Origin: Escherichia phage VEcB
DNA length: 64,000 bases
Sequence record: NC_052663.1
Strand: one strand, 5' to 3'
Positions 12,187 through 54,104 of the stretch are shown here, in pieces; the first letter of the stretch is position 1; every line of letters starts with the position of its first letter. Below the pieces are notes generated by a model. It had not been told where the DNA came from. It worked only from the letters and a program-made list of their open reading frames with translations, and made no database searches. Both the position numbers and the translations under genes were made by a program.

Positions 12187-12999
12187 TTACTTAGTCAAAT
12201 GATCTTCTATCATTTTTATGAAAGCAGGATTGCTAAAAGCATCTGCTGCCTTTTCTCTGTAAACAAAGACTCCTCTATCTTCGTAAAGAAGAGTTTCTTC
12301 GTAATTAATTCCTGGGTTAACAACAATCATTTTTGTACCCATATTAAGTGCAGGGAATAATTCCCAATTAAAATTGATAACTTGGTTTGAACATCCTACT
12401 ACAACAACCAAATCTTGCATGGTCAAAGTATCAAACAAGTGAGCCATATCTGCATACAAAGGTGCAGCCTCACCAAAAAATACAACATTAGGCTTCACCC
12501 AGTTATAATCATCTATGTTTATACTATTGTAACCAATGTCTACCAGTGTTTTGTAATCTCCAGGATGCATACGGTAAACTACTTCATGGAGATACCCGTG
12601 CACGTGAATAACAGAATCCCTGTCCACACCTGCTCGCTCTAGTAGATCATCGACGTTTGTTGTCAAGTTTACTACTTGGTTAGGATATTCCTTAAACCAC
12701 TTTGCTATTTGAATATGTGCAGCATTAGGTTGTACATCTTTAAGCTCAACACGTCTTTTGTTATAAAATTCGTGTGTTTTGGCATACAAATCCATACCGT
12801 TCTCGTCTACACCACCGACCACTGGAAGATCTGGTGATGTTCTCACACGATAACCTGCTTGGAAAGCTCCAATATCGCAGATCTCTTCTAAATCCCATTC
12901 TTCCCATAGGGCACGACCACTATCTGTGTCTGTTCGGAATGTTCGAATCCCACTATCTGCACTTAAACCAGCTCCACTAACAAAAATTACTCTTCGCAT
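12187..12999 (-). CDS. Sir2-family NAD-dependent protein (deacylase/ADP-ribosyltransferase/NADase fold)
   Basis: GAGLSADSGIRTFR, PNAAH, TTNVDDLLERAG, HVHG and VFFGE motifs; no zinc-ribbon cysteines. Confidence 0.7.
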   Translation of the reverse strand: MRRVIFVSGAGLSADSGIRTFRTDTDSGRALWEEWDLEEICDIGAFQAGYRVRTSPDLPVVGGVDENGMDLYAKTHEFYNKRRVELKDVQPNAAHIQIAKWFKEYPNQVVNLTTNVDDLLERAGVDRDSVIHVHGYLHEVVYRMHPGDYKTLVDIGYNSINIDDYNWVKPNVVFFGEAAPLYADMAHLFDTLTMQDLVVVVGCSNQVINFNWELFPALNMGTKMIVVNPGINYEETLLYEDRGVFVYREKAADAFSNPAFIKMIEDHLTK

Positions 13000-17160: not shown

Positions 17161-17481
17161 TTAACAAGTAATATTGGGAGTAACAATTGGATTAACAATT
17201 GGAGTAATAGGGTACGTAAACCAAGGGCTTCCAATTTCCCAAGGATTATAAGGTCTACGAGGATCGTATGGAGGAGTTACTTCAGGCTTTTTCCAAATCT
17301 CCGCTAATTGTTTCTTCCATTTATCCCTTGCTGTCTCATTATCTTCATCCAACTGTTCATCATTATCTTTTATTTCTGGTTTTGGAAATAAAAGCTCTTT
17401 GACTAACTCAACATCTTCCGTCTCAATAGTAGTTTCTTTCGTAAGTTCTCCTACTGTTTCTTTAATTGTGATTTTATACAT
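17161..17481 (-). CDS. hypothetical proline-rich protein
   Basis: 106-aa ORF. Confidence 0.35.
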   Translation of the reverse strand: MYKITIKETVGELTKETTIETEDVELVKELLFPKPEIKDNDEQLDEDNETARDKWKKQLAEIWKKPEVTPPYDPRRPYNPWEIGSPWFTYPITPIVNPIVTPNITC

Positions 17482-18227
17482 TAGTCCTCCTCTAAAGTAG
17501 AATAAAATTGTAACGTATTTGAATCATCAAAATATGCAAAGGTTAAATTACCATTGAAGCAAGATCCTGTGTCCATATATACCCTATTACTGCTAATTAC
17601 AGGTTTAGGAACATAAGAATGCCCGTGAAATACATAATCTACTCCTGAGACTCTAGGAAGAAGAATCCCTTCAAGTGCGCAATCTATCATATCACGATCC
17701 CACATTAAAGATTCTGTGAATCGAGAAACTTGCTCTTTATTCATATTCAAACAAAATGGCAAAACTTCTGTCACTGGTAAATGTTCCAAAACTGAAGGAT
17801 ACCCACCGTGAATAAAGCCTAGTTTCATATTACGATAATTGACAACAAGTACAACAGGTAAATCTTCTAGCATCAAAGCAAGAGCAGTTGCACCCTCTTC
17901 TCCACACTCGTCTAGAACTGTATGGCCTCCGTTCTGAAACCAACATTCGTAATATCGTCTATCACCTTCTAGCAACCCTTTAATCATCATATCTTCATGA
18001 TTTCCACGAATACCATAACGATTTAGCTTCCTGGTGAATTCAACAACACAACGAAAATTCTGCTTGCCGCGATCTGTAAGATCTCCTAAAGATACAACAA
18101 CATCTTGATCTCGGATACCTAAAGTATTAACACCTTTCTGGTACAAATCAAAGCAACCATGTAAATCACCAATAATAAACAGGTCTTGATCATCTTTTAC
18201 ACTAATTTCTTGATATACTAGCATCAA
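17481..18227 (-). CDS. Ser/Thr protein phosphatase (PPP family, lambda-PPase-like)
   Basis: GDLHG, GDLTDRG, GNHE metallophosphatase motifs. Confidence 0.85.
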   Translation of the reverse strand: MMLVYQEISVKDDQDLFIIGDLHGCFDLYQKGVNTLGIRDQDVVVSLGDLTDRGKQNFRCVVEFTRKLNRYGIRGNHEDMMIKGLLEGDRRYYECWFQNGGHTVLDECGEEGATALALMLEDLPVVLVVNYRNMKLGFIHGGYPSVLEHLPVTEVLPFCLNMNKEQVSRFTESLMWDRDMIDCALEGILLPRVSGVDYVFHGHSYVPKPVISSNRVYMDTGSCFNGNLTFAYFDDSNTLQFYSTLEED

Positions 18228-19357: not shown

Positions 19358-20020
19358 TTATTTAATATTCAATTTTGCACAAAGACGTTGTACCGCTTTG
19401 GCATCGAACAAACTCCCACGAATAGTTCTCTTTCCTGATTCATTCAGATGCTTTGCAATCGTCATATATGGCGTTTTACAAGCTCTGTATGCAACTAAAG
19501 AATCTTTTAAAGAAAGCGCAAACTCTCTTGAGCGTTTTGCTTCTTCCGTTTTCGTATAATCTGTTCTTTTGTATTTAGGGTTTGCTGCACCAAGAAGCGT
19601 TCCCTTCGCTTTTGCTACCTTAAGGCTCTTCTTAACACGATCAGATATTGCACGAGCCTCTTCTTCTGCCAGAACTGCTAAAATATTTATTATCATATTT
19701 TCAGCGGAGGGCATAGTTGCTATCCGTACATTAATCATCTCTAACAAGGTTGCAACAGAAGCTGTGTTACGTCCCAGACGGTCAACCTTAGCAACAACAA
19801 GTGTAGCACCTGTTTCTTTGCAAAGATTAACAGCTTTTACAAGCTCTCTACGTTGCTTCCAATCGCCTTTACCAGAATAAAACTCTGCAAAGCTACCTAC
19901 AATAGTATAATTTTCTTGTGAATCCAGGAAGCGTTGGATATCTGCTTCCTGTGATTCTATACCATACTGGTTGCCTTGTTGTTTCTTCTTAGAAAGTCGA
20001 TGATACAGTACAAACTTCAT
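19358..20020 (-). CDS. serine recombinase (resolvase/invertase family)
   Basis: N-terminal YHRLS catalytic Ser context, GATLVVAKVDRLGRN motif, C-terminal HTH. Confidence 0.75.
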   Translation of the reverse strand: MKFVLYHRLSKKKQQGNQYGIESQEADIQRFLDSQENYTIVGSFAEFYSGKGDWKQRRELVKAVNLCKETGATLVVAKVDRLGRNTASVATLLEMINVRIATMPSAENMIINILAVLAEEEARAISDRVKKSLKVAKAKGTLLGAANPKYKRTDYTKTEEAKRSREFALSLKDSLVAYRACKTPYMTIAKHLNESGKRTIRGSLFDAKAVQRLCAKLNIK

Positions 20021-39361: not shown

Positions 39362-40084
39362 TTAAGCAATGATTGCTGCGATATTAGGTTTAACAAAGGT
39401 AGATGGTTTCATAATTTTACCTTTGTCATCAAAGAATACGTATACCTTTTGAACTTCGTTATATACAGCATGTACCCCAGTATAAGAACCTTCTGCACGA
39501 TCTTTGCTTCGCATCTCGATAGCATCGCACTCTTTTTCAAGAGCTTCAATAATATCCTTAGTTTCCCAAATAGCCAGGAGTTGCTTCTTGGTAGGATACT
39601 TGGACTCATTGCTATTCAACACTTCACGCATAACCTTCTTCTCGTTATAAACAGAACGCACCAAAGTATCTCGTGCCATACGGGTAAGTGTAAGAGACAT
39701 TAAGGCAAATTGCAAGTCATTTTCTACCATTTTATCAAATTCAATGATAACATCGTAAATGTTCTCTGCCAGAACATCTCCTGTCGGCATTTCCAGAGCT
39801 TTATCAACACCTTCTTTACCAAAGAACATAAATGCCAGATAGGATGCTACCACAAAAATATCTGCTGCTGCATCAAGTAATTCAACGTGATCATTTTCCT
39901 GTGCTGCTGCTTGGAACTCTTTAAGTTCTTCTCGTACAAAAGAAAGTTGAGCTTCAAACATCTCTTGAGTAAACTCTGGAGTTACTCCACCACGTGCCTT
40001 AGCATTCCAAGCAACAATTTGATCGGCAGCTTTGATAAAGAAGCTATTGTCCACTTTTACTTGTTTGAAAAAATTCTCGATCAT
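39362..40084 (-). CDS. putative MazG-like nucleoside triphosphate pyrophosphohydrolase
   Basis: EELKEF...ELLDAAADI pattern typical of all-alpha NTP-PPases. Confidence 0.4.
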   Translation of the reverse strand: MIENFFKQVKVDNSFFIKAADQIVAWNAKARGGVTPEFTQEMFEAQLSFVREELKEFQAAAQENDHVELLDAAADIFVVASYLAFMFFGKEGVDKALEMPTGDVLAENIYDVIIEFDKMVENDLQFALMSLTLTRMARDTLVRSVYNEKKVMREVLNSNESKYPTKKQLLAIWETKDIIEALEKECDAIEMRSKDRAEGSYTGVHAVYNEVQKVYVFFDDKGKIMKPSTFVKPNIAAIIA

Positions 40085-40093
40085 TGTTTCTCC

Positions 40094-40285
40094 TTATTTA
40101 AAATATTGTTTTGTAAATTCCACCAGATATACAACAACTGCACCCATTTGTACACCTGCTGCACCGTAGACAATCATCAGACTAGCCTTCTGCCACCATG
40201 TTGGGTGAGGGAAAGTTGATGCGACAATTATACCACAAGCAACAATAGAAAGCAACACAAGAATCAAAATAACTTCAATGCTCAT
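40094..40285 (-). CDS. small membrane protein (two TM helices)
   Basis: 63-aa hydrophobic ORF. Confidence 0.45.
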   Translation of the reverse strand: MSIEVILILVLLSIVACGIIVASTFPHPTWWQKASLMIVYGAAGVQMGAVVVYLVEFTKQYFK

Positions 40286-40296
40286 TGCAACCTCCT

Positions 40297-40926
40297 TTAT
40301 GTTTTAATCTTGCCAAAATACAATACTTCAGCTTCCTGTCTTGCTGATATAGCATCTTCAATATCAATAAATGCTCCAAGACGGATATCTTTTCCTTGAT
40401 AGGATATACGAGCAATCCATCTTTTTTCTTTCTCGCTCCACACAACACCTGTTTTACCAGAAGTGTTATTTTTCTGTTTTCGTGTATTGTATGACTGGAC
40501 AGACCTTGTAGCCCAGCGACAATTTTCTTTACTGTAATCTTTTTCAGAGTCTATTCTGTCAAGAGATAAACCTTTAGGTCTATCTCCCATATCCTCAAAG
40601 AATGCAGAGAATGAATTTCTCCAAGCATCACAAACCTTAATACCACGACCACCGTAGTATTCAAAGTGAGTATTGTTTTTGTTATAGCATCTCCCTAACA
40701 TAGCTTCCCACGATTTGTATGCTCCTGTTTGTGTTGTTTTCGGTCTACACTTGGAACAATAAGAACTTCTATTCTTCCTAAGTGTTTCCATAGTTACCGT
40801 GCAAATATTACCACAATCACAAGAACAAGTAAAACGTCTTTTGCCATGTTTGTCCCTTTCAATCTCTTCTAAGACAGTATAACAACCGCATTTCTTACCT
40901 ACAAGGTCTACTCTCTTGGCTCCCAT
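40297..40926 (-). CDS. homing-endonuclease-like protein with Cys-rich N-terminus and AP2 domain
   Basis: RWIARISYQGKDIRLGAFIDIEDAISA AP2-type motif; paralog of 28717-29373. Confidence 0.4.
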   Translation of the reverse strand: MGAKRVDLVGKKCGCYTVLEEIERDKHGKRRFTCSCDCGNICTVTMETLRKNRSSYCSKCRPKTTQTGAYKSWEAMLGRCYNKNNTHFEYYGGRGIKVCDAWRNSFSAFFEDMGDRPKGLSLDRIDSEKDYSKENCRWATRSVQSYNTRKQKNNTSGKTGVVWSEKEKRWIARISYQGKDIRLGAFIDIEDAISARQEAEVLYFGKIKT

Positions 40927-42023
40927 GTTCCCTCCACCATTTCCCGTAAACGGACACCTGTTGGTTTCGTAGGTATTCCACCATCGGAAAACTCTTCATA
41001 CTCAATCTCAACAAATTTACCAATTAACATTTCGGCATTTTCTGCTTTACGATAGTTAATGGTTTCATCTGAATCCTTACGCATCAGGAATTCGACTACT
41101 TTACCATTTTCCATCTCTCCTGTCAATACCCCGTCACCATTTTTATCACGCTTTGCACTTACCACTTTAACTTCAAGCGTCTGACGTGGTTTACGTTTAA
41201 TAACATCATAAGAACGTTTATCGAATTCGTAAACACCTTTTGCGTTACGATACACTACACCTTCCGCTTTCTCACGTAGAGCTTTTGCATAGAAAGCATC
41301 AAACTGTTCTTGGTTTTCAATGTACTCTGTATGTACTACACAAATAAGTTCATCTAAACCTTTATCTTCAACAACTTCTTTTAGAGCAGCCAAAACTTGA
41401 ACCCTCTTCTCAAATGGTACAGATGCCACAGGAACATCGTATACATAATATTTAAGAAGCGGTGTGTTAGCATTATGCTTTTTCCACGCACTATTAATTT
41501 GTTGAAGGCTAAGGACACCCAAGCCAGCAAAAACTTCACCGTCAAGAGGATGACCAACTACTTCTTTAATGAAGGTTGGAATTTCTTCCCAGTGAGGTGG
41601 AAGTTTATATACCTCCCCAGCTTTAGATAAACATTCACCTTGCATGTTAATCATTGAACGTAGACCATTCAATTTATATTGTGCATAACCTGGGAACAAA
41701 ACACGGTCAGCATAATCTTTATAATCCTGACATTTCATGGGTGTGGAAGGAACATGGTTTTCAGCTTCCTCTTTTGTTTTATAATACCCATTCTTAAGTT
41801 GCTTTGTCCACTTGGCAAGAGCTTCTATTTCAGCTTGTTCTTCTGCTGTTGTTTCATTTGAGCGACCAATATTTTTAGGTTCTGCCGTATAAGATTTGCT
41901 AGTAATCTTTCCACCTAATTGACCATGAGCAACAGTTACAACACTACCTTCGGTATAGACTGACCACTGTTTAATTTTACCTGTAGAAGTTTTACCATAT
42001 AACGTAGGATTAGTTTGTTTCAT
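40908..42023 (-). CDS. ATP-dependent DNA ligase
   Basis: motif I KLNGLR, III DGEVF, IV EGVVYR, V VIKRKP; start placed at internal Met (ORF track end 42071). Confidence 0.75.
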   Translation of the reverse strand: MKQTNPTLYGKTSTGKIKQWSVYTEGSVVTVAHGQLGGKITSKSYTAEPKNIGRSNETTAEEQAEIEALAKWTKQLKNGYYKTKEEAENHVPSTPMKCQDYKDYADRVLFPGYAQYKLNGLRSMINMQGECLSKAGEVYKLPPHWEEIPTFIKEVVGHPLDGEVFAGLGVLSLQQINSAWKKHNANTPLLKYYVYDVPVASVPFEKRVQVLAALKEVVEDKGLDELICVVHTEYIENQEQFDAFYAKALREKAEGVVYRNAKGVYEFDKRSYDVIKRKPRQTLEVKVVSAKRDKNGDGVLTGEMENGKVVEFLMRKDSDETINYRKAENAEMLIGKFVEIEYEEFSDGGIPTKPTGVRLREMVEGTWEPRE

Positions 42024-42213
42024 CTTTAACCTCCAGTTGCGAAAGAACCCATTTAGCCATTTCAATTTCACCGTGCAGTCTGCCTAGTTCATAGGCATCA
42101 TCAATATTACCACCAGTGTAATCATCCACCATAAAGTAAGGATCTTCGCTACTGTTAGGTGCGTTTGCAATTCTCGTTAGTTCTTCAATAAATGTCATAG
42201 TTACCCTTACCAA
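42010..42213 (-). CDS. hypothetical protein
   Basis: 67-aa ORF. Confidence 0.35.
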   Translation of the reverse strand: MVRVTMTFIEELTRIANAPNSSEDPYFMVDDYTGGNIDDAYELGRLHGEIEMAKWVLSQLEVKDETN

Positions 42214-42764: not shown

Positions 42765-43169
42765 TTATTGTAGCTTAAGTGAACTGCGAAGACGTTTCTC
42801 TTGCTGATCACGAATATGTTGTGGAACCTCATGAATTGAGTCGTTACCGTGCCTATTTTCAACAACTAAAGAGATAACTTGATAACCAAACTCTTCGGCA
42901 AGAGTAAAATAAGGTTTAAGTTCTTTCTCTGTGGTTGAAGTGTTAGAGACAATAATCTTTTTAATATTAGATGCCATAGCATCACGAACAATACTCTGAC
43001 ACCATGCGTGTGCTTTACCTACATTTTCTGGCTTCCAATCGTAAGCCCCGTTTTCTGTGTAATGATATTGATCTGCCTCACAGATAGGCCAATAACCTTC
43101 AGAAATAATTTCTGCTACTGTAGATTTACCTGCACCTGAAACACCACGTAAAATGATAAGTTGTTTCAT
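42765..43169 (-). CDS. P-loop kinase (polynucleotide-kinase-like)
   Basis: Walker A GVSGAGKST in a 134-aa protein directly downstream of the ligase-like gene. Confidence 0.55.
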   Translation of the reverse strand: MKQLIILRGVSGAGKSTVAEIISEGYWPICEADQYHYTENGAYDWKPENVGKAHAWCQSIVRDAMASNIKKIIVSNTSTTEKELKPYFTLAEEFGYQVISLVVENRHGNDSIHEVPQHIRDQQEKRLRSSLKLQ

Positions 43170-44102
43170 TTAGCCTCCAAAGAAGTTTTCTATTTCTTTA
43201 CGTCGCTCTTGTGGGTCTAGAGCAGCCCATTGAACCTTCGTAAAGTTATTTCGAAGCCATTCTAGCAAAGTATAATATTCTTCGTCAACAATTTGTTTAG
43301 CATTTTTTGGGTTGTCCCAAATCATATCCCACTTCTTATTGCCACCACGCATAAGGAACTTCTTAGCAAGATAGTATGGTGACTTAATCTTTAAGAGTAA
43401 GTTAAACGGATAGTTTGTTTCACGAACAACAAAGCCTTCGTGTCTACAATGTTTAGACATTTCAACAACATCTGAAAATTTAATCATCGGATAAACTTCA
43501 GGACGTTTAAATTTTGTAATAGATGCAATCCCATCAAGAACACCTTCAGGTAACATGAAACTTGTCCCATCCAGGTTTTGAATTCTTGCTCCAATTAAGT
43601 ACGCGCCTGGTTCTTCTTCGACAATATGTGGATCAGAAGGATCGCAGATTTCAAAAAGAAAAGTTGCTTTTGCACTTTCTGTCCACTTAATGAAATACTC
43701 TATGTCGTCACACTCGGAAACAATACGGTTCTTTGCCATAATTGCAAAATCTGATTCTAGGCTCCCTGTTGTTGATACAACAAGTTTCCCTTTGTACACA
43801 CCTACAGATGCCATAAAACCGTTTACTTTACGGACAGCATCTACAAGTTGGTCTGCTGGAAGATCTGTACCATTTTCAAAACGATTAAAGATTTTAGTAA
43901 AAGGCCAAATAACAACATTGTCTTCTGAGTCAACAACCAACCCACGACAATCTAGAAGGCGTTTGTCTACGTCCCACAAATTGTCCCAGAATACATTGTT
44001 TTTGTATTTAAGTACAGCAAGACCAGCATACTCTCCAGATTTAACTTCTTTTTTATGCACTAAACCTTTTGCAATCAGGTCATCACAATTGAACTTAGCC
44101 AC
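43170..44102 (-). CDS. RNA-ligase-like covalent nucleotidyltransferase
   Basis: motif I KVNG, motif IV EGFVVR, motif V LKIK. Confidence 0.5.
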   Translation of the reverse strand: MAKFNCDDLIAKGLVHKKEVKSGEYAGLAVLKYKNNVFWDNLWDVDKRLLDCRGLVVDSEDNVVIWPFTKIFNRFENGTDLPADQLVDAVRKVNGFMASVGVYKGKLVVSTTGSLESDFAIMAKNRIVSECDDIEYFIKWTESAKATFLFEICDPSDPHIVEEEPGAYLIGARIQNLDGTSFMLPEGVLDGIASITKFKRPEVYPMIKFSDVVEMSKHCRHEGFVVRETNYPFNLLLKIKSPYYLAKKFLMRGGNKKWDMIWDNPKNAKQIVDEEYYTLLEWLRNNFTKVQWAALDPQERRKEIENFFGG

Positions 44103-44103
44103 C

Positions 44104-44655
44104 TTAATCTCCTTTGATTATCTTATGATGATCTACAACAACAATATCACGCTTATCCATAATAGAGATGATTTCGTCAAAATGCAAGATTTTTCCGTGT
44201 ACGTCCCAACCAACATCCAACATTTTCCCATACAAATGATCAGGGAATGATCCGTGAGAGTGCCCGTGTAGCATGATTGATCCATGCCCTTGTTTATTCC
44301 AGGCAGCCATAGGGTAATGACTTAAGACGAAGAACAGTTTCTGATATTTCACTTCGTCATAATATACCACTTCACCATACTCTGCAAGCACTTTTCTGTG
44401 CTTACTGTAATCATGGTTCCCAACACAGTAAGTAATATCCCCTTGGAGACGGGAAGCAATCTTACGGGTATCTTCTTCAGTCCCGAAACAGAAGTCCCCA
44501 AGATGGTACATTTTTACTCCTGGTGTTGTGGCACATTTGTTCCATGCTTCGATCAGTGCTTCTGTCATATGCTCCATATCTTCCCACGGGCGATATTCAG
44601 GAGCAAACTCTCGAATACGTTTGTGCATAAAATGCAAATCACTTGTAATAAACAT
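44104..44655 (-). CDS. calcineurin-like metallophosphoesterase
   Basis: SDLHF, GDFCFG, GNHD, HGHSHG motifs. Confidence 0.7.
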   Translation of the reverse strand: MFITSDLHFMHKRIREFAPEYRPWEDMEHMTEALIEAWNKCATTPGVKMYHLGDFCFGTEEDTRKIASRLQGDITYCVGNHDYSKHRKVLAEYGEVVYYDEVKYQKLFFVLSHYPMAAWNKQGHGSIMLHGHSHGSFPDHLYGKMLDVGWDVHGKILHFDEIISIMDKRDIVVVDHHKIIKGD

Positions 44656-45017
44656 TAGTATAATCCCTCGCTGAATAGTTCACTGTCGTGACCATTTCTT
44701 TCATAGTTAATTTGTTTGGCGTTATCTGCAATGATATAAGCATCTTTGCGACTCCACCAATTATAATACTGATCAATAAACCCTTGATTATCAGGTAAGC
44801 AAAACAGTTTATCGATCAATCCTGCATCTTTTAAAACATTAAGTTGTGCAGATAGTACAGGATTTGCATGCCTAACACAAGGAATAATTAACTCTTCGCC
44901 ATTGTTGAGAATATACTTATTCGCAGCGCAGACTATAACACGTTGAGCATAGTGATCCTCACCAATCCAGGTAAGAGGTTGGTAACAAATATCATGTTGA
45001 TTAGTAGCGCACATCAA
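44655..45017 (-). CDS. hypothetical protein
   Basis: 120-aa ORF. Confidence 0.45.
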   Translation of the reverse strand: MMCATNQHDICYQPLTWIGEDHYAQRVIVCAANKYILNNGEELIIPCVRHANPVLSAQLNVLKDAGLIDKLFCLPDNQGFIDQYYNWWSRKDAYIIADNAKQINYERNGHDSELFSEGLY

Positions 45018-45169: not shown

Positions 45170-45544
45170 TTAATAGTTAACACGTTTAATTTCAACACCA
45201 TAGGATGAAATAAAATTTTCCTTAGCTAACATATATTTACCAGCAGCAGAAGGATTTGATGTATGAACATAGATAGTTTTAAGAGCATCCCATTCACCTG
45301 CGTACAACATACATTCTACATCTAAGAACGCATGATATCCTTCTTGATCTTCCCCAAGATCATTATCGAAGTGTATTTCTGAGATGTTATTGAAATTATC
45401 TTCATCTGAAACAAAAGATGACCAATCCCCAAAAGATTTTAACCAAATGGCATCCTCATAACCATAATCTTTAGGATCTCTTAAATCGTCTAACCAAAGA
45501 ATTTTAGCCACTATCAACCCCCTTCCTGTTTCTCTTCTTTCCAA
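45170..45544 (-). CDS. hypothetical protein
   Basis: 124-aa ORF. Confidence 0.45.
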   Translation of the reverse strand: MERRETGRGLIVAKILWLDDLRDPKDYGYEDAIWLKSFGDWSSFVSDEDNFNNISEIHFDNDLGEDQEGYHAFLDVECMLYAGEWDALKTIYVHTSNPSAAGKYMLAKENFISSYGVEIKRVNY

Positions 45545-47547: not shown

Positions 47548-48441
47548 ATGAAAGTTAGTATTCTACATGGTGTTGACTGTTATGTTACTGATGTAGACGT
47601 TAAAGTCTTTACATTCTCTGGTGGAGAACAACATGTTCAACTAGACACGAATCTATCAGGTTTCAATCATGCTACAGACAGAATCTTACTCTCTTTAGAA
47701 GTAAGATCTGCTAAAGACTTGATGACTTTGGTTATGACTAAGAATGCATTGGACAATATGCTATATCATAAACCATATTGTGTTGATTTGCTCATGTTGT
47801 ATGTGCCATATGCACGACAAGACAGAGTGTGTGAACCTGGGGAAGCATTCGGAGTTAAAGCATTTGCTTCTATAATTAATTCATTAAATTTCTCACGTGT
47901 TATCGTTGCTGATCCACATAGTGATGTTACTCCAGCGGTGTTTGACAGACTCTGTGTAATACCTCAAGAAGAGATTGCTTACGAAACTTTAAAGTGGAAG
48001 TTACGTATGGAGAATTTTGCTCTTGTTAGTCCTGATGGTGGTGCTCTTAAGAAAATATTTAAATTATCTAAGAAAATGTCTTTAGATGTGTTCTGTGCAG
48101 AGAAGGTTAGAGATACTGCAACAGGTGCTATTGTTCGTACAGACATTTCTGTACAGGATTTCAATAAGCGTAACCTGATGATCGTAGATGATATCTGTGA
48201 TGGTGGTAGAACTTTTATCGAATTGGCTAAAGTGCTACGTGCTCGTAACGCAGGTAAGATTGAGTTATATGTTACACACGGTATCTTTTCTAAAGGTCTT
48301 AAAGAGTTAAGTGAGCACTTTGACTGCATTCATTCTCTTAATGTGTGGGAAGATAACATCCAAGAAGATTCCGGTGTTCTTGTTAAGAATCAGTCAGATT
48401 TGCAACAACAAATTGTATCTCCATACGTGTGGAATTTTTAA
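47548..48441 (+). CDS. ribose-phosphate pyrophosphokinase family protein (PRPP-synthetase-like; candidate Adps of an NAD+ reconstitution pathway)
   Basis: YARQDR, VSPDGG, MIVDDICDGGRT motifs. Confidence 0.8.
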   Translation: MKVSILHGVDCYVTDVDVKVFTFSGGEQHVQLDTNLSGFNHATDRILLSLEVRSAKDLMTLVMTKNALDNMLYHKPYCVDLLMLYVPYARQDRVCEPGEAFGVKAFASIINSLNFSRVIVADPHSDVTPAVFDRLCVIPQEEIAYETLKWKLRMENFALVSPDGGALKKIFKLSKKMSLDVFCAEKVRDTATGAIVRTDISVQDFNKRNLMIVDDICDGGRTFIELAKVLRARNAGKIELYVTHGIFSKGLKELSEHFDCIHSLNVWEDNIQEDSGVLVKNQSDLQQQIVSPYVWNF

Positions 48442-48512: not shown

Positions 48513-50246
48513 ATGAATATTTTTGCACCTTTTGCTACTGATTGGTATAAGCCTGGTCACAAGCAGATGTACAACCAAAATACAAAACTCATTTTCTCTA
48601 ATTTAACTCCTCGTAATGATAAAAACTTTGCACACTATGCAGATCGTGAAGCACGTGGTGTCATTGTTTTAGGTATTCGTCGAGCAGTAACCGATGCTCT
48701 TGTAACTATGTGGGACGGCTTCTTTAAAATGTCTCGTAGTGCAGCAGTAAATAAATTTTATCGTATGTCTAAAAATGCATTAGGTGCTTCTGCTCCTTCT
48801 GCTGAATGTTGGGGAGAATTGCACGATTTAGGTTATCTTCCGCTAGAAGTTCGATCTCTGCCAGAAGGTGTTTTGTGTCCTATTGGTGTTCCTGTGTTTA
48901 CTGTGCATAACACTTTAGAAAAATTCTTTTGGTTAACTAACTATGTGGAAACACTATTGTCAGATGAAACTTGGAAGACAATGACTAACGCCACAGCAGC
49001 TTTTCAGTATAAGCGTATCGCTATGGCGTATGCGATGGCAACGTGTGATAACATTGATCACGTTAATTTCCAGTGTCATGACTTTAGTCTACGTGGCTTA
49101 AGCAATATCGAAGATGGTTATAAGAGTGGTATCGCTCATTTGGCATCTTTCACAGGAACAGATAATATTCTGGCTATTGAGACTGTGCATGATTATTATG
49201 GTATTGATTATGATCAGTTTGTTGCAGGTTCTATTCCGGCAACAGAACATTCAGTAGCAACGACTAACATTGGAGCTATTGTTGAAGATCTGAAGAAACA
49301 TTTCCCACATCTTAAAGATGATGTTGATGGGCTTCGTTATGTAGCAGAGAAAGAGTTTCTTCGCCGCTATATCGAAGAAATTGTTCCAGAAGGTTTTTGT
49401 TCATATGTAGCAGATTCTTATGACTACTGGGCTGTCTTGACTCGCATTCTGGTAGAATTGAAAGAATCCATTATGTCACGAAATGGTCGTCTTGTTATTC
49501 GTCCAGATTCAGGAGATCCGGTTAAAGTTGTTGCAGGATACAATGTTGAATCTTTTGATAACTATGAAGACCTTTTAAATAATGGTATTGCTCCAGCCAC
49601 TGAAGTAGTTCATTTGGCTGATGTTAATAAGTATTACAATGTTCTTCAGGATTGCAGTGTTGCTGATTGTATTGATGAAACTTATGAGATTCCTTATTGT
49701 GAAGCAGTAGGTTCTATTCAAATCCTTTGGGAAGTGTTTGGTGGTACTATCAACCGAAAAGGCTACAAGGTTCTTGATCAGCACATCGGTATGATTTATG
49801 GTGATTCTATTACTGTTGAACGAGAACACGAAATCTTACGCCGACTGAAGAAGAAAGGTTTTGCAGCTTCCAATATTGTATTTGGTGTTGGTAGTTATAC
49901 TTATCAGTTCAATACACGAGATACTTTTGGTTTTGCTGTTAAAGCAACAGGTAGTATCATCGGTGAACACGAAATTTTGGTAAGTAAGGAGCCTAAAACT
50001 GATCCTGGTAAACGTTCTGCAAAAGGTTTTATTAAGGTTGTTAAGGATACAAACGGTAAACTTTCTCTCGTGGATAATCTTTCTTTTAAAGATATTCAAG
50101 ATGAAGACAATGAGTTAAAAGTTATCTTCAGGGATGGTACGGTTATTACACCACAAGTAGAAGGACGTGATGAAACATTTACGGATATCCGCAATCGTGT
50201 TGATGTAGAGGTTCTTCGTACTATGGGAACCATCCAGGTTGACTAA
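48513..50246 (+). CDS. nicotinamide phosphoribosyltransferase family protein (Nampt/NadV-like; candidate Namat)
   Basis: 577 aa; N-terminal FATDWYKPGHKQMY and overall layout typical of the Nampt family. Confidence 0.8.
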   Translation: MNIFAPFATDWYKPGHKQMYNQNTKLIFSNLTPRNDKNFAHYADREARGVIVLGIRRAVTDALVTMWDGFFKMSRSAAVNKFYRMSKNALGASAPSAECWGELHDLGYLPLEVRSLPEGVLCPIGVPVFTVHNTLEKFFWLTNYVETLLSDETWKTMTNATAAFQYKRIAMAYAMATCDNIDHVNFQCHDFSLRGLSNIEDGYKSGIAHLASFTGTDNILAIETVHDYYGIDYDQFVAGSIPATEHSVATTNIGAIVEDLKKHFPHLKDDVDGLRYVAEKEFLRRYIEEIVPEGFCSYVADSYDYWAVLTRILVELKESIMSRNGRLVIRPDSGDPVKVVAGYNVESFDNYEDLLNNGIAPATEVVHLADVNKYYNVLQDCSVADCIDETYEIPYCEAVGSIQILWEVFGGTINRKGYKVLDQHIGMIYGDSITVEREHEILRRLKKKGFAASNIVFGVGSYTYQFNTRDTFGFAVKATGSIIGEHEILVSKEPKTDPGKRSAKGFIKVVKDTNGKLSLVDNLSFKDIQDEDNELKVIFRDGTVITPQVEGRDETFTDIRNRVDVEVLRTMGTIQVD

Positions 50247-50986: not shown

Positions 50987-50994
50987 TATTCAAG

Positions 50995-51070
50995 GTTCCA
51001 TAGCTCACTGACGAGAGCGCACACCTCATAAGTGTCGAGGGCAGGGATTGTAACCCTGGGGAACCACCAT
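50995..51070 (+). tRNA. tRNA-Met (anticodon CAT)
   Basis: acceptor GGTTCCA/GGGAACC, anticodon loop CTCATAA, CCA encoded; T-loop atypical. Confidence 0.6.
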
Positions 51071-51101
51071 TTAAAAGGAGGTGCTATGCATCTCCTATAT
51101 G

Positions 51102-51187
51102 CAAGTGTGGTGGAATTGGTGATACACATTGTGCTTAAAACGCAACGCTTAAATGATTGAGGGTTCGAATCCCTCCACTTGCACCAA
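51102..51187 (+). tRNA. tRNA-Leu (anticodon TAA), class II
   Basis: acceptor GCAAGTG/CACTTGC, anticodon loop CTTAAAA, long variable arm, T-loop TTCGAAT, CCA. Confidence 0.7.
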
Positions 51188-51189
51188 CG

Positions 51190-51295
51190 CCTAGTAGGGT
51201 ATTTGGTAATTCCGAGGCCATCAAAGCCTGAAAAATATGTTAGACCGTTTTGTCTAACTAAATACGAAATATGGTTCGATTCCATAACTAGGCTC
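51190..51295 (+). tRNA. atypical tRNA-like gene (about 106 nt; anticodon-like loop CATCAAA, TCA)
   Basis: perfect 7-bp acceptor GCCTAGT/ACTAGGC and T-arm TATGG-TTCGATT-CCATA but about 30 extra nt with a 7-bp extra hairpin. Confidence 0.35.
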
Positions 51296-51329
51296 CCGAT
51301 TTAAATAGTAATTTTTTAATAAAAATATC

Positions 51330-51358
51330 TTGACATTTACTTAGTTTTTTGTTATAGT
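51330..51358 (+). promoter_or_regulatory. sigma70-like promoter TTGACA-N17-TATAGT
   Basis: consensus hexamers immediately upstream of tRNA-like gene at 51370. Confidence 0.6.
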
Positions 51359-51369
51359 TACTATGAAAA

Positions 51370-51451
51370 CGGGGTGTATCTCACCTGACTTCTAATCAGG
51401 CGTTAACCGAGTAATTGGAGTATGCAGGTTCGAATCCTGTCACCCCGGCCA
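51370..51451 (+). tRNA. atypical tRNA-like gene (anticodon-like hairpin with TCT, no canonical D-arm)
   Basis: acceptor CGGGGTG/CACCCCG, T-arm GCAGG-TTCGAAT-CCTGT, CCA; hairpin CCTGA-CTTCTAA-TCAGG lies too close to the 5' end. Confidence 0.35.
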
Positions 51452-51469
51452 AAAAGTTTTAAAAACTAC

Positions 51470-51499
51470 TTGACAAGCAAGATAGTTTTATGTTAGATT
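51470..51499 (+). promoter_or_regulatory. sigma70-like promoter TTGACA-N18-TAGATT
   Basis: hexamers upstream of tRNA-Ser at 51515. Confidence 0.55.
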
Positions 51500-51514
51500 T
51501 AAAGTATGGTAACA

Positions 51515-51604
51515 GGAAGGTAGGGCGCAGCGGTGCGCAACCAGGTTTGAACCCTGGCCCATTGTAGCGATACGGTGATGGTTCGACTCCATTATCTTCC
51601 TCCA
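51515..51604 (+). tRNA. tRNA-Ser (anticodon TGA), class II
   Basis: acceptor GGAAGGT/ATCTTCC, anticodon stem-loop CCAGG-TTTGAAC-CCTGG, long variable arm, CCA. Confidence 0.7.
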
Positions 51605-51782
51605 AATTCAATGAGTGATTTTATGAATTATAAAACTATTGGACAGGTTGTTACCGGAGTTAAGATTGTAAATAATAAAGTTGTTTATGAGTATTCTAAT
51701 CTTCAACAATCTGAAGATGGTAAGAATATTCGTATGGTAAAAGCAGAACAAAAAGATTCCGGTTGTTTTGAATAATTAAAAA

Positions 51783-51868
51783 CGGTAGATTGGTGAAATG
51801 GTAGCCACAACAGTTTGCTAAACTGTCGTCGGAAACGGCGTGTAGGTTCAAGTCCTACATCTACCGCC
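51783..51868 (+). tRNA. tRNA-Ser (anticodon GCT), class II
   Basis: acceptor GGTAGAT/ATCTACC, anticodon stem-loop ACAGT-TTGCTAA-ACTGT, long variable arm, CCA. Confidence 0.7.
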
Positions 51869-51997
51869 AAGTTATCTTTAATGTAGCGTTGAGGCTACTT
51901 ACTTTAGCAGAGTAAACTTTCGGCAGATGGTGGCAGCCATTTTACCGATACCTCATAGTCAGTGCCGCAAACACTGGCTATTTTAAAGATAATTTAT

Positions 51998-52072
51998 ACA
52001 TCGTTAGCTTAGTTGGTAGAGCAAGGGCTTTTAACTCCAAGGTCGAAGGTTCGAATCCTTCACGATGTACCA
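51998..52072 (+). tRNA. tRNA, probably Lys (anticodon TTT)
   Basis: acceptor ACATCGT/ACGATGT, D-loop AGTTGGTA, loop CTTTTAA, T-loop TTCGAAT, CCA; anticodon stem weak. Confidence 0.5.
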
Positions 52073-52077
52073 AACAC

Positions 52078-52164
52078 GTAGGTATCGCATAGCGGCAATT
52101 GCTGGAGACTGTAAATCTCCTGCCCTTCGGGGCTTCGTTGGTTCGAGTCCAACTACCTGCACCA
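52078..52164 (+). tRNA. tRNA-Tyr (anticodon GTA), class II
   Basis: acceptor GTAGGTA/TACCTGC, anticodon stem-loop GGAGA-CTGTAAA-TCTCC, long variable arm, CCA. Confidence 0.7.
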
Positions 52165-52171
52165 AATTAAA

Positions 52172-52256
52172 GATGGATTGGCCTAGTGGTTGGGCGACGG
52201 ACTGTTAATCCGTGAACGAAAGTTCTAGCAAGGTTCAAATCCTTGATCCATCGCCA
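52172..52256 (+). tRNA. class II (long-variable-arm) tRNA with anticodon GTT
   Basis: acceptor GATGGAT/ATCCATC, perfect anticodon stem ACGGA/TCCGT with loop CTGTTAA, 15-nt variable arm, discriminator G, CCA. Confidence 0.55.
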
Positions 52257-52260
52257 AATA

Positions 52261-52329
52261 GTGCTTGTAGAGTTAATAGAAACCTCTAGAATTTTCTAGA
52301 ATTGTAGGTATCAAATCCTACCAAGCAAA
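52261..52329 (+). other. degenerate tRNA-like element
   Basis: 6-bp acceptor-like pairing and T-arm-like GTAGG-TATCAAA-CCTAC but palindromic TCTAGAATTTTCTAGA instead of anticodon arm, no CCA. Confidence 0.25.
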
Positions 52330-52335
52330 TATTTT

Positions 52336-52410
52336 GCTCCTATCGTATAACGGCTATTACGGTTGCCTTGTAAGCAACTTATCAGGGTTCGAGTCCTTGT
52401 GGGAGCACCA
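52336..52410 (+). tRNA. tRNA-Thr (anticodon TGT)
   Basis: acceptor GCTCCTA/TGGGAGC, anticodon stem-loop GTTGC-CTTGTAA-GCAAC, T-loop TTCGAGT, CCA. Confidence 0.7.
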
Positions 52411-52427
52411 ATTTTAACTCTAAAGGA

Positions 52428-52757
52428 GTGTATGTGACAGAAAAAGAGTTAGAGAAATATTTTAATATCAATGTTTTCGATGGTTTTGATGATATTGAAG
52501 ATGTTGAAAGATATTATGAAGTAGAGTTAGATAGGGATAACATTGTAATTCTTTCTGCCACTTATGATTGTGCATATTATGAAGGCGAATCTCACGTTTA
52601 TTTTTATGATATGAAAACATCTTTGTTTTATGAAGTACACGCATATCATTGTTCTTGTTATGGCTTAGAAGGTCAGTGGGAACCTGAAGAAATAGGTGAT
52701 TTGGACTTTACTATTGCATATCTAAACAGACGTGGTTCATCTACTATTTTAAAATAA
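52428..52757 (+). CDS. hypothetical protein
   Basis: 109-aa ORF (GTG start after AAGGAG) inside the tRNA cluster. Confidence 0.45.
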   Translation: MYVTEKELEKYFNINVFDGFDDIEDVERYYEVELDRDNIVILSATYDCAYYEGESHVYFYDMKTSLFYEVHAYHCSCYGLEGQWEPEEIGDLDFTIAYLNRRGSSTILK

Positions 52758-52771
52758 ATATCAAAAGCCTC

Positions 52772-52801
52772 TTGACAAAGGGGCTAATAATATGTTAGAG
52801 T
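52772..52801 (+). promoter_or_regulatory. sigma70-like promoter TTGACA-N18-TAGAGT
   Basis: hexamers upstream of tRNA-Gly. Confidence 0.5.
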
Positions 52802-52812
52802 AATATTGTTAA

Positions 52813-52887
52813 GCGGGTATAGTGTTAATGGTAGCATATGAGGTTTCCACCCTCCAGGTGCAGGTTCAAGTCCTGTTACTCGCTCCA
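52813..52887 (+). tRNA. tRNA-Gly (anticodon TCC)
   Basis: acceptor GCGGGTA/TACTCGC, anticodon loop TTTCCAC, T-loop TTCAAGT, CCA. Confidence 0.65.
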
Positions 52888-52986
52888 AGATTATTTAAAT
52901 GGAATCGCTAGAGAAAATTTCTCTTTTTGCTCATGGTTTTCTCCTTCAAACTCTAGCGGTTCTTTTTAAGTGATTTTTTAGTTTAT

Positions 52987-53061
52987 TGGAGATTAGCCTA
53001 GTGGGAAGGCAACGGCCTTTGAAGTCGTGATGACTAGGTTCGATTCCTAGATCTCCAGCCA
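52987..53061 (+). tRNA. tRNA-Gln (anticodon TTG)
   Basis: acceptor TGGAGAT/ATCTCCA, anticodon stem-loop ACGGC-CTTTGAA-GTCGT, T-loop TTCGATT, CCA. Confidence 0.65.
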
Positions 53062-53103
53062 ATTAATTGCATAGCATGAGTATTTCTCATTGGTTAAAAG
53101 GAG

Positions 53104-53469
53104 ATGCAAGTGAATTGTGAACATTGTGGTAGTGAGTTTACTTTGATAAAAGGTCATGGTGGACAAAACAGATTATACTGTTACACTTGTATTCCAGAAG
53201 GTTTAGATAAACAAGTACACACAAGATTACATCAAGAGCTTAGAAGAGAGCGATCTCATAGGATGAAACTTGATTTAGGTTGCAAAGTGTGTGGTTATGC
53301 TAAATGTGCAGTAGCACTAGAATGGCATCACCCAGAGGACGATAAGAAACACAATCCATCAAATGCAATCAAAAGATCTTGGTCTGCTTACTTAGAAGAG
53401 ACTGAAAAGTGTATCTTACTATGTGCCAATTGTCATAGAGAAGTACATGCTGGTCTTATACAGGTTTAA
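53104..53469 (+). CDS. HNH endonuclease (free-standing, inside tRNA cluster)
   Basis: CEHCG...CYTC zinc ribbon then WHHPEDDKKHN...CANCHREVH HNH motif. Confidence 0.7.
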   Translation: MQVNCEHCGSEFTLIKGHGGQNRLYCYTCIPEGLDKQVHTRLHQELRRERSHRMKLDLGCKVCGYAKCAVALEWHHPEDDKKHNPSNAIKRSWSAYLEETEKCILLCANCHREVHAGLIQV

Positions 53470-53470
53470 T

Positions 53471-53546
53471 CAGTGCGTAGCGCAGTTGGTAGCGTGGGAG
53501 CCTTGGACGCTTCAGGTCGCAGGTTCGAGTCCTGCCGCACTGACCA
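53471..53546 (+). tRNA. tRNA-Pro (anticodon TGG)
   Basis: acceptor CAGTGCG/CGCACTG, D-loop AGTTGGTA, anticodon stem-loop GGAGC-CTTGGAC-GCTTC, T-loop TTCGAGT, CCA. Confidence 0.7.
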
Positions 53547-53551
53547 AATTT

Positions 53552-53626
53552 GCAGAGATAGCTGAGACGGATTAGTGCTACCCTGAAAAGGTAGAAAGGA
53601 TGGATCGTTACCATCTCTCTGCACCA
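53552..53626 (+). tRNA. tRNA-Phe (anticodon GAA)
   Basis: acceptor GCAGAGA/TCTCTGC, anticodon stem-loop CTACC-CTGAAAA-GGTAG, CCA; T-loop ATCGTTA atypical. Confidence 0.65.
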
Positions 53627-53703
53627 AATAACACCATCCAAGGAGTAGACTTGGTTAACTGTCAATAGCACATTGAGGCTTCTTACAGTGGTGTACTTAT
53701 TAT

Positions 53704-53788
53704 GGCTAAGTGGTGGAATGGTATACACGATACGCTTAGAACGTATTGCCCCAAGGGATTGTGAGTTCGAGTCTCACCTTAGCTACCA
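53704..53788 (+). tRNA. tRNA-Leu (anticodon TAG), class II
   Basis: acceptor GGCTAAG/CTTAGCT, anticodon stem-loop ATACG-CTTAGAA-CGTAT, long variable arm, T-loop TTCGAGT, CCA. Confidence 0.7.
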
Positions 53789-53803
53789 AATTATTACAGA
53801 TTG

Positions 53804-53882
53804 TGCGGGATAGAGGAGTCTGGTCGTCCTCGCCAGTTTCATATGCTGGAGATCATCGGTTCGAATCCGATTCCCGCCTCCA
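53804..53882 (+). tRNA. tRNA with anticodon CAT (Met or lysidine-type Ile)
   Basis: acceptor TGCGGGA/TCCCGCC (1:72 unpaired), anticodon stem-loop CCAGT-TTCATAT-GCTGG, T-loop TTCGAAT, CCA. Confidence 0.6.
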
Positions 53883-53947
53883 ATAAATACCTCCCTTCTG
53901 GTGTAATGATTAAGTTACATTGACACTTCAAGGAAATCATAGCCGGG

Positions 53948-54023
53948 TAGATTTAAAAGAGTATGGTACTCAATATGGCTCCAAACCATAGATCAAGGGG
54001 TTCGATTCCTCACCTTGCTGCCA
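53948..54023 (+). tRNA. tRNA-like gene, possibly Trp (anticodon CCA); acceptor pairing not confirmed
   Basis: anticodon stem-loop TATGG-CTCCAAA-CCATA and T-loop TTCGATT plus CCA, but no 5' strand complementary to CCTTGCT found. Confidence 0.3.
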
Positions 54024-54028
54024 ATTAT

Positions 54029-54104
54029 TGTGGTATCGTACAGATGGTTAGTACACTCGACCGATAATCGAGAAACAACGGTTCGACTCCGTTTACCACG
54101 ACCA
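54029..54104 (+). tRNA. tRNA-Ile (anticodon GAT)
   Basis: acceptor TGTGGTA/TACCACG, anticodon stem-loop CTCGA-CCGATAA-TCGAG, T-loop TTCGACT, CCA. Confidence 0.65.

Follow-up and report, generated by a model that had tools for sequence, protein, structure and literature searches.

In the 64,000-nucleotide stretch of the genome of Escherichia phage VEcB analyzed here (NC_052663.1; referred to below as the window), three consecutive minus-strand genes at 42765-44655 encode a metallophosphoesterase, an RNA ligase, and a kinase, a combination for which an original prediction had proposed a role in tRNA or RNA repair. The list of open reading frames (ORFs) bore out both the arrangement and every motif quoted for it. 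The phosphoesterase gene (44104-44655) specifies a 183-amino-acid (aa) protein with D6-x-H8, GDFCFG (residues 53-58), GNHD (79-82), and HGHSHG (130-135). The ligase gene (43170-44102), which begins with a GTG codon, specifies a 310-aa protein with KVNG, including K92, EGFVVR (222-227), and LKIK (237-240), and the kinase gene (42765-43169) specifies a 134-aa protein with GVSGAGKST at residues 9-17, a stand-alone P-loop protein of the polynucleotide 5'-kinase type (Pfam AAA_33). The junctions of the trio are tight, with Shine-Dalgarno sequences lying within the preceding gene (AAAGGAG..TAA-G-GTG at the ligase and GGAGG..TAA-ATG at the kinase), and the phosphoesterase start codon overlaps the stop codon of the gene before it (TAATG), which encodes a 120-aa protein of PHROG 839. 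The three are translationally coupled genes. A scan of 39-48 kb for promoters and terminators performed at chance level (35 promoter-like sites compared to 30.4 expected, and 5 terminator-like sites compared to 4.6), and is therefore uninformative on the transcription unit.

These ORFs are real genes and not chance ORFs: homologues of the encoded proteins number in the hundreds to thousands, and their matches to PHROG families have E values of 1e-55 to 1e-68. A scan of NCBIfam was uninformative for all three proteins. Compared to a 97%-identical relative, ratios of nonsynonymous to synonymous substitution rates (dN/dS) were 0.27, 0.11, and 0.055 for the kinase, ligase, and phosphoesterase, respectively, values that derive from few substitutions; more distant relatives were unusable due to saturation of synonymous sites. 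Judged by this single unsaturated comparison, the trio is under purifying selection. The region is 96-99% identical to that of many phi92-like E. coli phages of the genus Justusliebigvirus (Stephanstirmvirinae), the best match being EC_OE_11 at 99.1%.

Family assignments of the three proteins

Single-sequence searches of the PDB were weak, returning nothing for the ligase and only P-loop-level matches for the kinase, so that profiles were needed. Among all PDB sequences, T4 Rnl1 was the sole significant match of a profile built from 27 ligase homologues (5e-11), and hhalign aligned the VEcB ligase with T4 Rnl1 at a probability of 96.7%. Identity between the two ligases is approximately 18%. 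The protein also matches Pfam RNA_lig_T4_1 above the gathering score (7e-14). Residues R53, K70, F72, K92, G95, E151, E222/G223, and K238/K240 align with R54, K75, F77, K99, G102, E159, E227/G228, and K240/K242 of T4 Rnl1, which we take to be essential in that enzyme, and the matching ligase residues are invariant or nearly so in the family. Nucleotidyltransferase motifs I, III, IV, and V, the Pfam family, and the closest fold all place the protein in the same clade. The original prediction had left the choice between Rnl1, Rnl2, Rnl4, and DNA ligases to be settled, and Pfam, the PDB profile, and hhalign clearly favor an Rnl1/Trl1-type enzyme. It is an ATP-dependent RNA ligase, not a DNA ligase, and within the Rnl1/Trl1 clade its distance to each of the two characterized branches is about the same. 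By analogy with T4, it is probably the sealing enzyme of the cassette, with breaks in tRNA anticodon loops as the predicted substrate.

The kinase matches Pfam AAA_33 (5e-10), PHROG 2071 (8e-58), and PHROG 505, annotated as polynucleotide kinase (3e-9). The top full-domain PDB matches of its family profile are Capnocytophaga Pnkp1 (4xrp, 5e-7), T4 Pnk (4e-5), and Clostridium thermocellum Pnk (CthPnk, 5e-5), and the protein aligns end to end with residues 1-149 of T4 PseT (hhalign probability 97.3%, E 2e-11). Conserved positions include K15, S16, D33 (the T4 general base D35), T77 (T86), and the lid arginine R106 (R122), and the GxxGxGKS motif, with K15 and S16, and D33 are invariant in the family, as expected of a T4 Pnk-type 5'-kinase domain. 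The chain stops at residue 134 and its homologues are 126-149 aa in length, leaving no fused HAD (DxDxT) 3'-phosphatase domain. That the kinase might prove to be a deoxynucleoside monophosphate (dNMP) kinase was a concern raised with the original prediction, but likeness to polynucleotide kinases extends over the full length, whereas that to dNMP kinase, gluconokinase, and nicotinamide riboside kinase is confined to the P-loop; the match to PHROG 139 spans only residues 1-35, and we rejected a dNMP-kinase identity. The protein is a bare Pnk-type domain and a putative 5'-OH end-healing enzyme.

For the phosphoesterase, the match to Pfam Metallophos_2 (3e-4) is below the Pfam cut-off. The ligands of a binuclear metal center (DxH, GD, GNH(D/E), H, GH, and GHxH on a calcineurin-like fold) are all invariant, placing the protein in that superfamily, and the structure model is a confident metallophosphoesterase fold with a predicted local distance difference test score (pLDDT) of 95.5. 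By sequence and by structural similarity to Aquifex aq_1665, it falls in the AQ1665/COG4186/cd07390 (MPP_AQ1575) clade, a widespread family that phage records label COG4186, cd07390, or the like and always list as uncharacterized. The GDxxDR motif that marks lambda-Pase and CthPnkp is absent. Given that its clade is uncharacterized and is not the lambda-Pase/Pnkp clade, it is genomic context that points to the phosphoesterase as a putative 3'-end healing enzyme, acting as a 2',3'-cyclic phosphodiesterase, a 3'-phosphomonoesterase, or both.

Conserved linkage of the three genes

Ligase neighborhoods were collected from 70 IMG/VR viral loci with ligase identities of 30-97%, taking ORFs within 5 kb as neighbors; identity is below 50% in 57 of these loci (the distant subset), and the other 13 form the close subset. 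In an unbiased clustering of neighbors across the 70 loci, the phosphoesterase (67 loci) and the kinase (64) came directly behind the ligase itself, and the next real gene families were a Nampt-like gene (36), DNA ligase (32), and a Prs-like gene (28). The distant subset retained the phosphoesterase in 54 and the kinase in 52 of its 57 loci, whereas most other neighbors from the window were present in 0-2, the exceptions being DNA ligase (19), the Prs-like gene (18), and a 209-aa ORF (9). Both phosphoesterase-ligase-kinase and kinase-ligase-phosphoesterase orders occur, indicating that the adjacency has outlasted rearrangement. The number of deposited phage genomes with the cassette is at least 664, and they include phages of E. 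coli, Klebsiella, Pseudomonas, Acinetobacter, and Vibrio.

An exhaustive search with the kinase profile recovered proteins in which the kinase is joined to this ligase subfamily, with either partner first (P0486 and P0442). In other proteins recovered, it is joined to an HD domain or to a 2H/CNPase domain, which are both known types of RNA 3'-end phosphoesterase. In Cardiobacteriaceae, a kinase-ligase fusion is followed by a gene for an AQ1665-type phosphoesterase, and in Leptolyngbyaceae cyanobacteria a single chromosomally encoded protein of 710-790 aa carries AAA_33 kinase, Metallophos, and RNA_lig_T4_1 domains (loci L079-L110, e.g., L097:4588-6903). We know of no characterization of this trifunctional protein, the domain order of which is that of bacterial Pnkp with a ligase of a different clade. 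No fusion of the phosphoesterase to a kinase or ligase of the same subfamilies was found: Pfam showed no additional domain in its 275-aa homologues, and none of the fusion proteins matched the profile of the phosphoesterase.

The kinase and phosphoesterase also occur together without this ligase in 23 of 79 kinase-seeded loci, equivalent to 23 of the 54 kinase loci that lack it, and 11 of those 54 have a nearby Rnl2/Rnl5-type RNA ligase (PF09414 with an N-terminal OB domain). Together, the neighborhood counts, the fusions, and the swapping of ligases indicate that the kinase and phosphoesterase form a putative end-healing pair for which the RNA ligase partner varies. We tentatively extend this to a broader proposal, to which we give slightly less than even odds, that a minimal Pnk-type kinase and an AQ1665/COG4186 phosphoesterase constitute a portable RNA end-healing pair with interchangeable Rnl1/Trl1-like and Rnl2/Rnl5-like ligases, often located beside the NARP1 genes discussed below.

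The linkage also bears on the annotation of the ligase family. In PHROG 562 and in numerous GenBank entries the family is named "RNA ligase and tail fiber protein attachment catalyst," after the second activity of T4 gp63, and the VEcB protein could accordingly be mainly a tail-fiber attachment factor with the kinase and phosphoesterase as unrelated neighbors. We consider this extremely improbable: the label is inherited from T4 at approximately 18% identity, the gene is located among early metabolic genes and not in the structural block, and a morphogenetic role would account for neither the conserved linkage nor the fusions with the kinase.

A predicted heal-and-seal pathway

The family and fold assignments, the conservation of catalytic residues, and the evolutionary linkage of the three genes support a reading in which the trio, as one translationally coupled unit, constitutes a heal-and-seal RNA repair pathway directed against host RNA-cleaving nucleases, to which we assign a probability of roughly 70%. 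We infer from these data that RNA, probably in the form of tRNA anticodon loops, is the substrate, and likewise how the work is divided and that it serves counter-defense. Cuts made by metal-independent RNases, anticodon nucleases among them, have 2',3'-cyclic phosphate and 5'-OH ends. The phosphoesterase would open the 2',3'-cyclic phosphate, remove the 3'-phosphate, or do both to yield a 3'-OH; the 134-aa kinase would transfer the gamma-phosphate of a nucleoside triphosphate onto the 5'-OH; and the ligase would self-adenylylate at K92, pass the AMP to the new 5'-phosphate, and join the ends. By analogy with T4 Pnkp and Rnl1 acting against PrrC, the pathway would serve to undo RNA cuts made by host defense or toxin nucleases.

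Two further genes in the window could contribute to 3'-end healing. Three genes upstream of the trio and on the same strand, 45170-45544 encodes a 124-aa protein with the Pfam domain PF20274 (cREC_REC; 3.9e-13, 50.3 bits against a cut-off of 27). The cREC domain has been predicted to open 2',3'-cyclic or ADP-ribose (ADPR) cyclic phosphates and has an operonic link to RNA ligases (Iyer et al. 2021, PMC7824862). In the VEcB lineage, this protein may open the cyclic phosphate before the phosphoesterase takes off the monoester. The gene is present in 9 of 13 close and 2 of 57 distant ligase loci; it is not a core member of the cassette but possibly a lineage-specific accessory. The catalytic role of the cREC family is itself a prediction. 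The second gene, at 17481-18227 on the minus strand, encodes a homologue of the lambda Ser/Thr phosphatase (PDB 1g5b, E 2e-29) with a GDLTDRG motif. Metallophosphoesterases of the CthPnkp and lambda-Pase types have RNA 2',3'-cyclic phosphodiesterase activity (PMC2190708). Since lambda-Pase exhibits this activity in vitro, the distant gene is an alternative candidate for 3'-end healing.

Several observations weigh against the proposed pathway. The lambda-Pase-like protein could in principle take the place of the cassette phosphoesterase. Three of the six essential residues of T4 Pnk are missing from the kinase, with R38, D85, and R126 replaced by H36, which is variable, an invariant N76, and D110, in an alignment that is uncertain in the lid region. 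In the ligase, D101 and K119 of T4 Rnl1 are replaced by an invariant N94 and an invariant T112. The all-helical C-terminal domain of T4 Rnl1, residues about 255-374, confers tRNA specificity, and only approximately 64 residues extend beyond the nucleotidyltransferase domain of the VEcB ligase, compared to approximately 120 in the T4 specificity domain; this C-terminal region (242-307) is helical in the predicted structure, and the sequence alignment to T4 Rnl1 ends at T4 residue 248. Given the missing kinase residues and the short ligase C-terminal domain, T4-like tRNA specificity should not be assumed. The linkage is also asymmetric, in that no partner gene is located within 8 kb in 53 of 80 loci seeded with the phosphoesterase and in 31 of 79 seeded with the kinase. 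A literature search found no biochemical or genetic study of the three subfamilies and no explicit description of the module, and searches on RNA repair in phi92-like phages, Stephanstirmvirinae, or Vequintavirinae gave nothing specific. Finally, the cassette is located among DNA-metabolism genes, with an ATP-dependent DNA ligase (40908-42071) 0.7 kb downstream. The kinase and phosphoesterase might heal DNA ends, at nicks with 5'-OH and 3'-phosphate termini, for that enzyme, or the ligase-like protein might itself seal DNA, but the ligase fold, the much weaker linkage to DNA ligase, and the nature of the fusions make DNA end repair very unlikely.

The original prediction had likened the cassette to T4 Pnk/Rnl1 and to bacterial Pnkp-type repair. 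The conserved neighborhood and the fusions do tie the three activities together, but the phosphoesterase lies outside the lambda-Pase/Pnkp clade. T4 Pnkp and Rnl1 reverse the cleavage of tRNA-Lys by PrrC. The cassette shares with T4 Pnkp (pseT) and Rnl1 (rnlA/gp63) the ligase family and fold, the type of kinase domain, and the presumed heal-then-seal logic, and in T4 rnlA and pseT share a strand at a distance of 1.4 kb, the ligase gene preceding that of the kinase as in VEcB, and are annotated for tRNA repair in prr hosts. In contrast with VEcB, the T4 kinase is fused to a HAD (DxDxT) phosphatase, whereas the VEcB 3'-healing candidate is a separate metallophosphoesterase; the VEcB ligase also differs from T4 Rnl1 in its KxNG motif I, in T112 in place of K119, and in a C-terminal domain about half as long. 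The bacterial Pnkp/Hen1 system, exemplified by C. thermocellum Pnkp with its kinase-metallophosphoesterase-ligase organization, has the same three chemistries and a binuclear metallophosphoesterase for 3' healing. The VEcB kinase profile matches the kinase domains of CthPnk and Pnkp1, and the cyanobacterial relatives of the ligase share the kinase-phosphoesterase-ligase order in one polypeptide, but the cassette has no Pnkp-type ligase domain, Hen1 partner, or lambda-Pase-like domain. Fungal and plant Trl1 combines a ligase, a kinase, and a 2H cyclic phosphodiesterase in one polypeptide, in which the 2H domain leaves a 2'-phosphate and Tpt1 is needed; no 2H or Tpt1 gene was seen here, and a metallophosphoesterase capable of acting on phosphomonoesters is present instead. 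With no HAD domain, lambda-Pase-type phosphoesterase, Pnkp-type ligase, or Hen1, the cassette lacks defining features of both characterized systems.

The annotation of these genes is not new. In the sister phage PaulScherrer, the trio is labeled "polynucleotide kinase," "RNA ligase," and "putative phosphoesterase," and in phage PD06 the ligase is labeled "putative RNA ligase/RNA repair." It has been predicted that phage Rnl1, Rnl2, and RtcB ligases act with polynucleotide kinases and phosphoesterases, including a calcineurin-like phosphatase in a few phages (PMC7824862); that study (Iyer, Anantharaman, Krishnan, Burroughs, and Aravind 2021) was purely predictive and concerned jumbo phages, whereas the module described here comes from phages of approximately 90-150 kb. 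The sister-phage records and the published concept precede this work, while the quantified linkage and the fusions of the three-gene module were not found in the literature searched. The cassette is a well-supported prediction that is partly reflected in databases and involves no new principle.

To our knowledge, the T4 pathway is the only phage repair pathway studied in depth, and cleavage of tRNA and other RNAs is emerging as a common anti-phage strategy of bacteria. If the proposal of a portable end-healing pair is correct, it would provide a first function, the removal of RNA 2',3'-cyclic or 3'-phosphates, for a widespread and structurally solved phosphoesterase family, as well as a third RNA-repair architecture distinct from T4 Pnkp/Rnl1 and bacterial Pnkp/Hen1, and the system might counter recently described tRNA-cleaving defense systems in addition to PrrC. 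An active pathway could also explain part of the host range of therapy-relevant phages on strains with RNA-cleaving defenses, and might yield compact RNA end-modifying enzymes in the form of the 134-aa kinase and the 310-aa ligase.

Genomic surroundings, NARP1, and the tRNA cluster

Genes for replication, recombination, and nucleotide metabolism form a long minus-strand block, with the trio at its downstream end and the DNA ligase next. Immediately upstream, the 120-aa PHROG 839 protein (44655-45017, minus strand; 3e-47) has no assigned function and no Pfam match, and its presence in 2 of 13 close and 1 of 57 distant ligase loci places it outside the conserved module. Past the strand switch, and divergent from the trio, are plus-strand Prs-like (47548-48441) and Nampt-like (48513-50246) genes, identified by Pribosyltran/Pribosyl_synth matches in Pfam for the pair and by sister-phage annotation, followed by a cluster of tRNA genes.

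The Prs-like and Nampt-like pair corresponds to NARP1, an NAD+-reconstitution operon (Adps and Namat) described from four BASEL phages including Bas63 (10.1101/2024.02.11.579819), and it is context and not part of the repair pathway. PaulScherrer (Bas60) is likewise a BASEL phage and may be among those four. NARP1 genes are near the ligase in 28-36 of the 70 loci, and in the unrelated Pseudomonas phage PAK_P4 a NARP1-type pair stands beside the trio together with a Macro-domain gene; this recurrence suggests that the repair trio and NARP1 form a recurrent counter-defense island. The same association raises the possibility that the kinase, the phosphoesterase, or both have small-molecule substrates from NAD+/ADP-ribose or nucleotide-signal metabolism tied to NARP1, for example as a kinase of ribosides or ADPR derivatives and as a phosphatase or cyclic-nucleotide phosphodiesterase, with the adjacency of the ligase reflecting no more than a shared island. 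The recurrence of NUDIX and NADAR genes near the kinase in other phages, the frequent occurrence of the phosphoesterase and kinase without the ligase, a weak nicotinamide riboside kinase match of the kinase profile (E 0.002), and the existence of phage phosphatases that extend NARP1 (10.64898/2026.01.28.702374) are all compatible with such a role. However, the match to nicotinamide riboside kinase covers only the P-loop region (residues 3-41) and those to polynucleotide kinases the entire domain, the kinase is fused to the ligase and not to NARP1 enzymes, and in the distant subset the linkage of the ligase to its two partners (52-54 of 57) is far above that of the Prs-like gene (18 of 57). The published NARP1-associated phosphatase, moreover, is a Macro-domain protein and not a metallophosphoesterase (10.64898/2026.01.28.702374), and for this reason we ruled out that the VEcB phosphoesterase is that enzyme. 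Taken together, we regard a small-molecule role as highly unlikely and continue to favor RNA repair.

The original prediction also pointed to a large tRNA set, and this was upheld: ARAGORN detected 15 plus-strand tRNA genes at 50994-54104, including Lys-UUU, Tyr-GUA, Asn-GUU, and Thr-UGU, and Rfam detected 14. The three enzymes might serve the RNA biology of the phage itself, in the maturation, splicing, or circularization of its transcripts or of its 15-16 tRNAs. Both ARAGORN and Rfam called the phage tRNAs as continuous and intron-free, no splicing endonuclease or Tpt1-like 2'-phosphotransferase was found among the Pfam-scanned ORFs or in the sister-phage annotation of the region, and the sole characterized phage precedent, that of T4, is one of counter-defense. 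With nothing found in its favor, we give this explanation only a slim chance and retain repair of host-inflicted RNA damage as the preferred reading.

Several minor features of the surrounding sequence were also observed. Of the 70 ligase loci, 19 encode an HD_4 protein no more than 5 kb from the trio (e.g., L027:6522-6998, and 1015-1575 in the PAK_P4 locus L076), but no such gene adjoins the trio in the VEcB window, which instead has a gene for a MazG-like pyrophosphohydrolase at 39362-40084. Between this gene and the DNA ligase are minus-strand ORFs of 63 and 209 aa (40094-40926), the latter overlapping the 3' end of the DNA ligase gene. Both ORFs are present in PaulScherrer and absent from PD06, an insertion or deletion of approximately 0.8 kb. 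By eye, the 209-aa protein is Cys-rich and AP2-like, with no Pfam match, and its homologues have a patchy distribution near the cassette, in 5 of the 13 close and 9 of the 57 distant loci, as would be expected of a mobile homing-endonuclease-like gene. Elsewhere in the window, a phage SIR2-family protein is encoded at 12187-12999 on the minus strand (Pfam SIR2, 1.3e-22); SIR2 proteins use NAD+, and the phage also carries the NAD+-reconstitution operon. A serine recombinase with a resolvase N-terminal domain (8e-22) is encoded at 19358-20020 on the minus strand, within an otherwise virulent-type myovirus genome. Within the tRNA cluster, Rfam adds a tRNA at 51370-51448 and misses those that ARAGORN places at 50994 and 51515, and the tRNA-Asn(GTT) called at 52172-52256 is 85 nucleotides in length, unusually long for an Asn tRNA.

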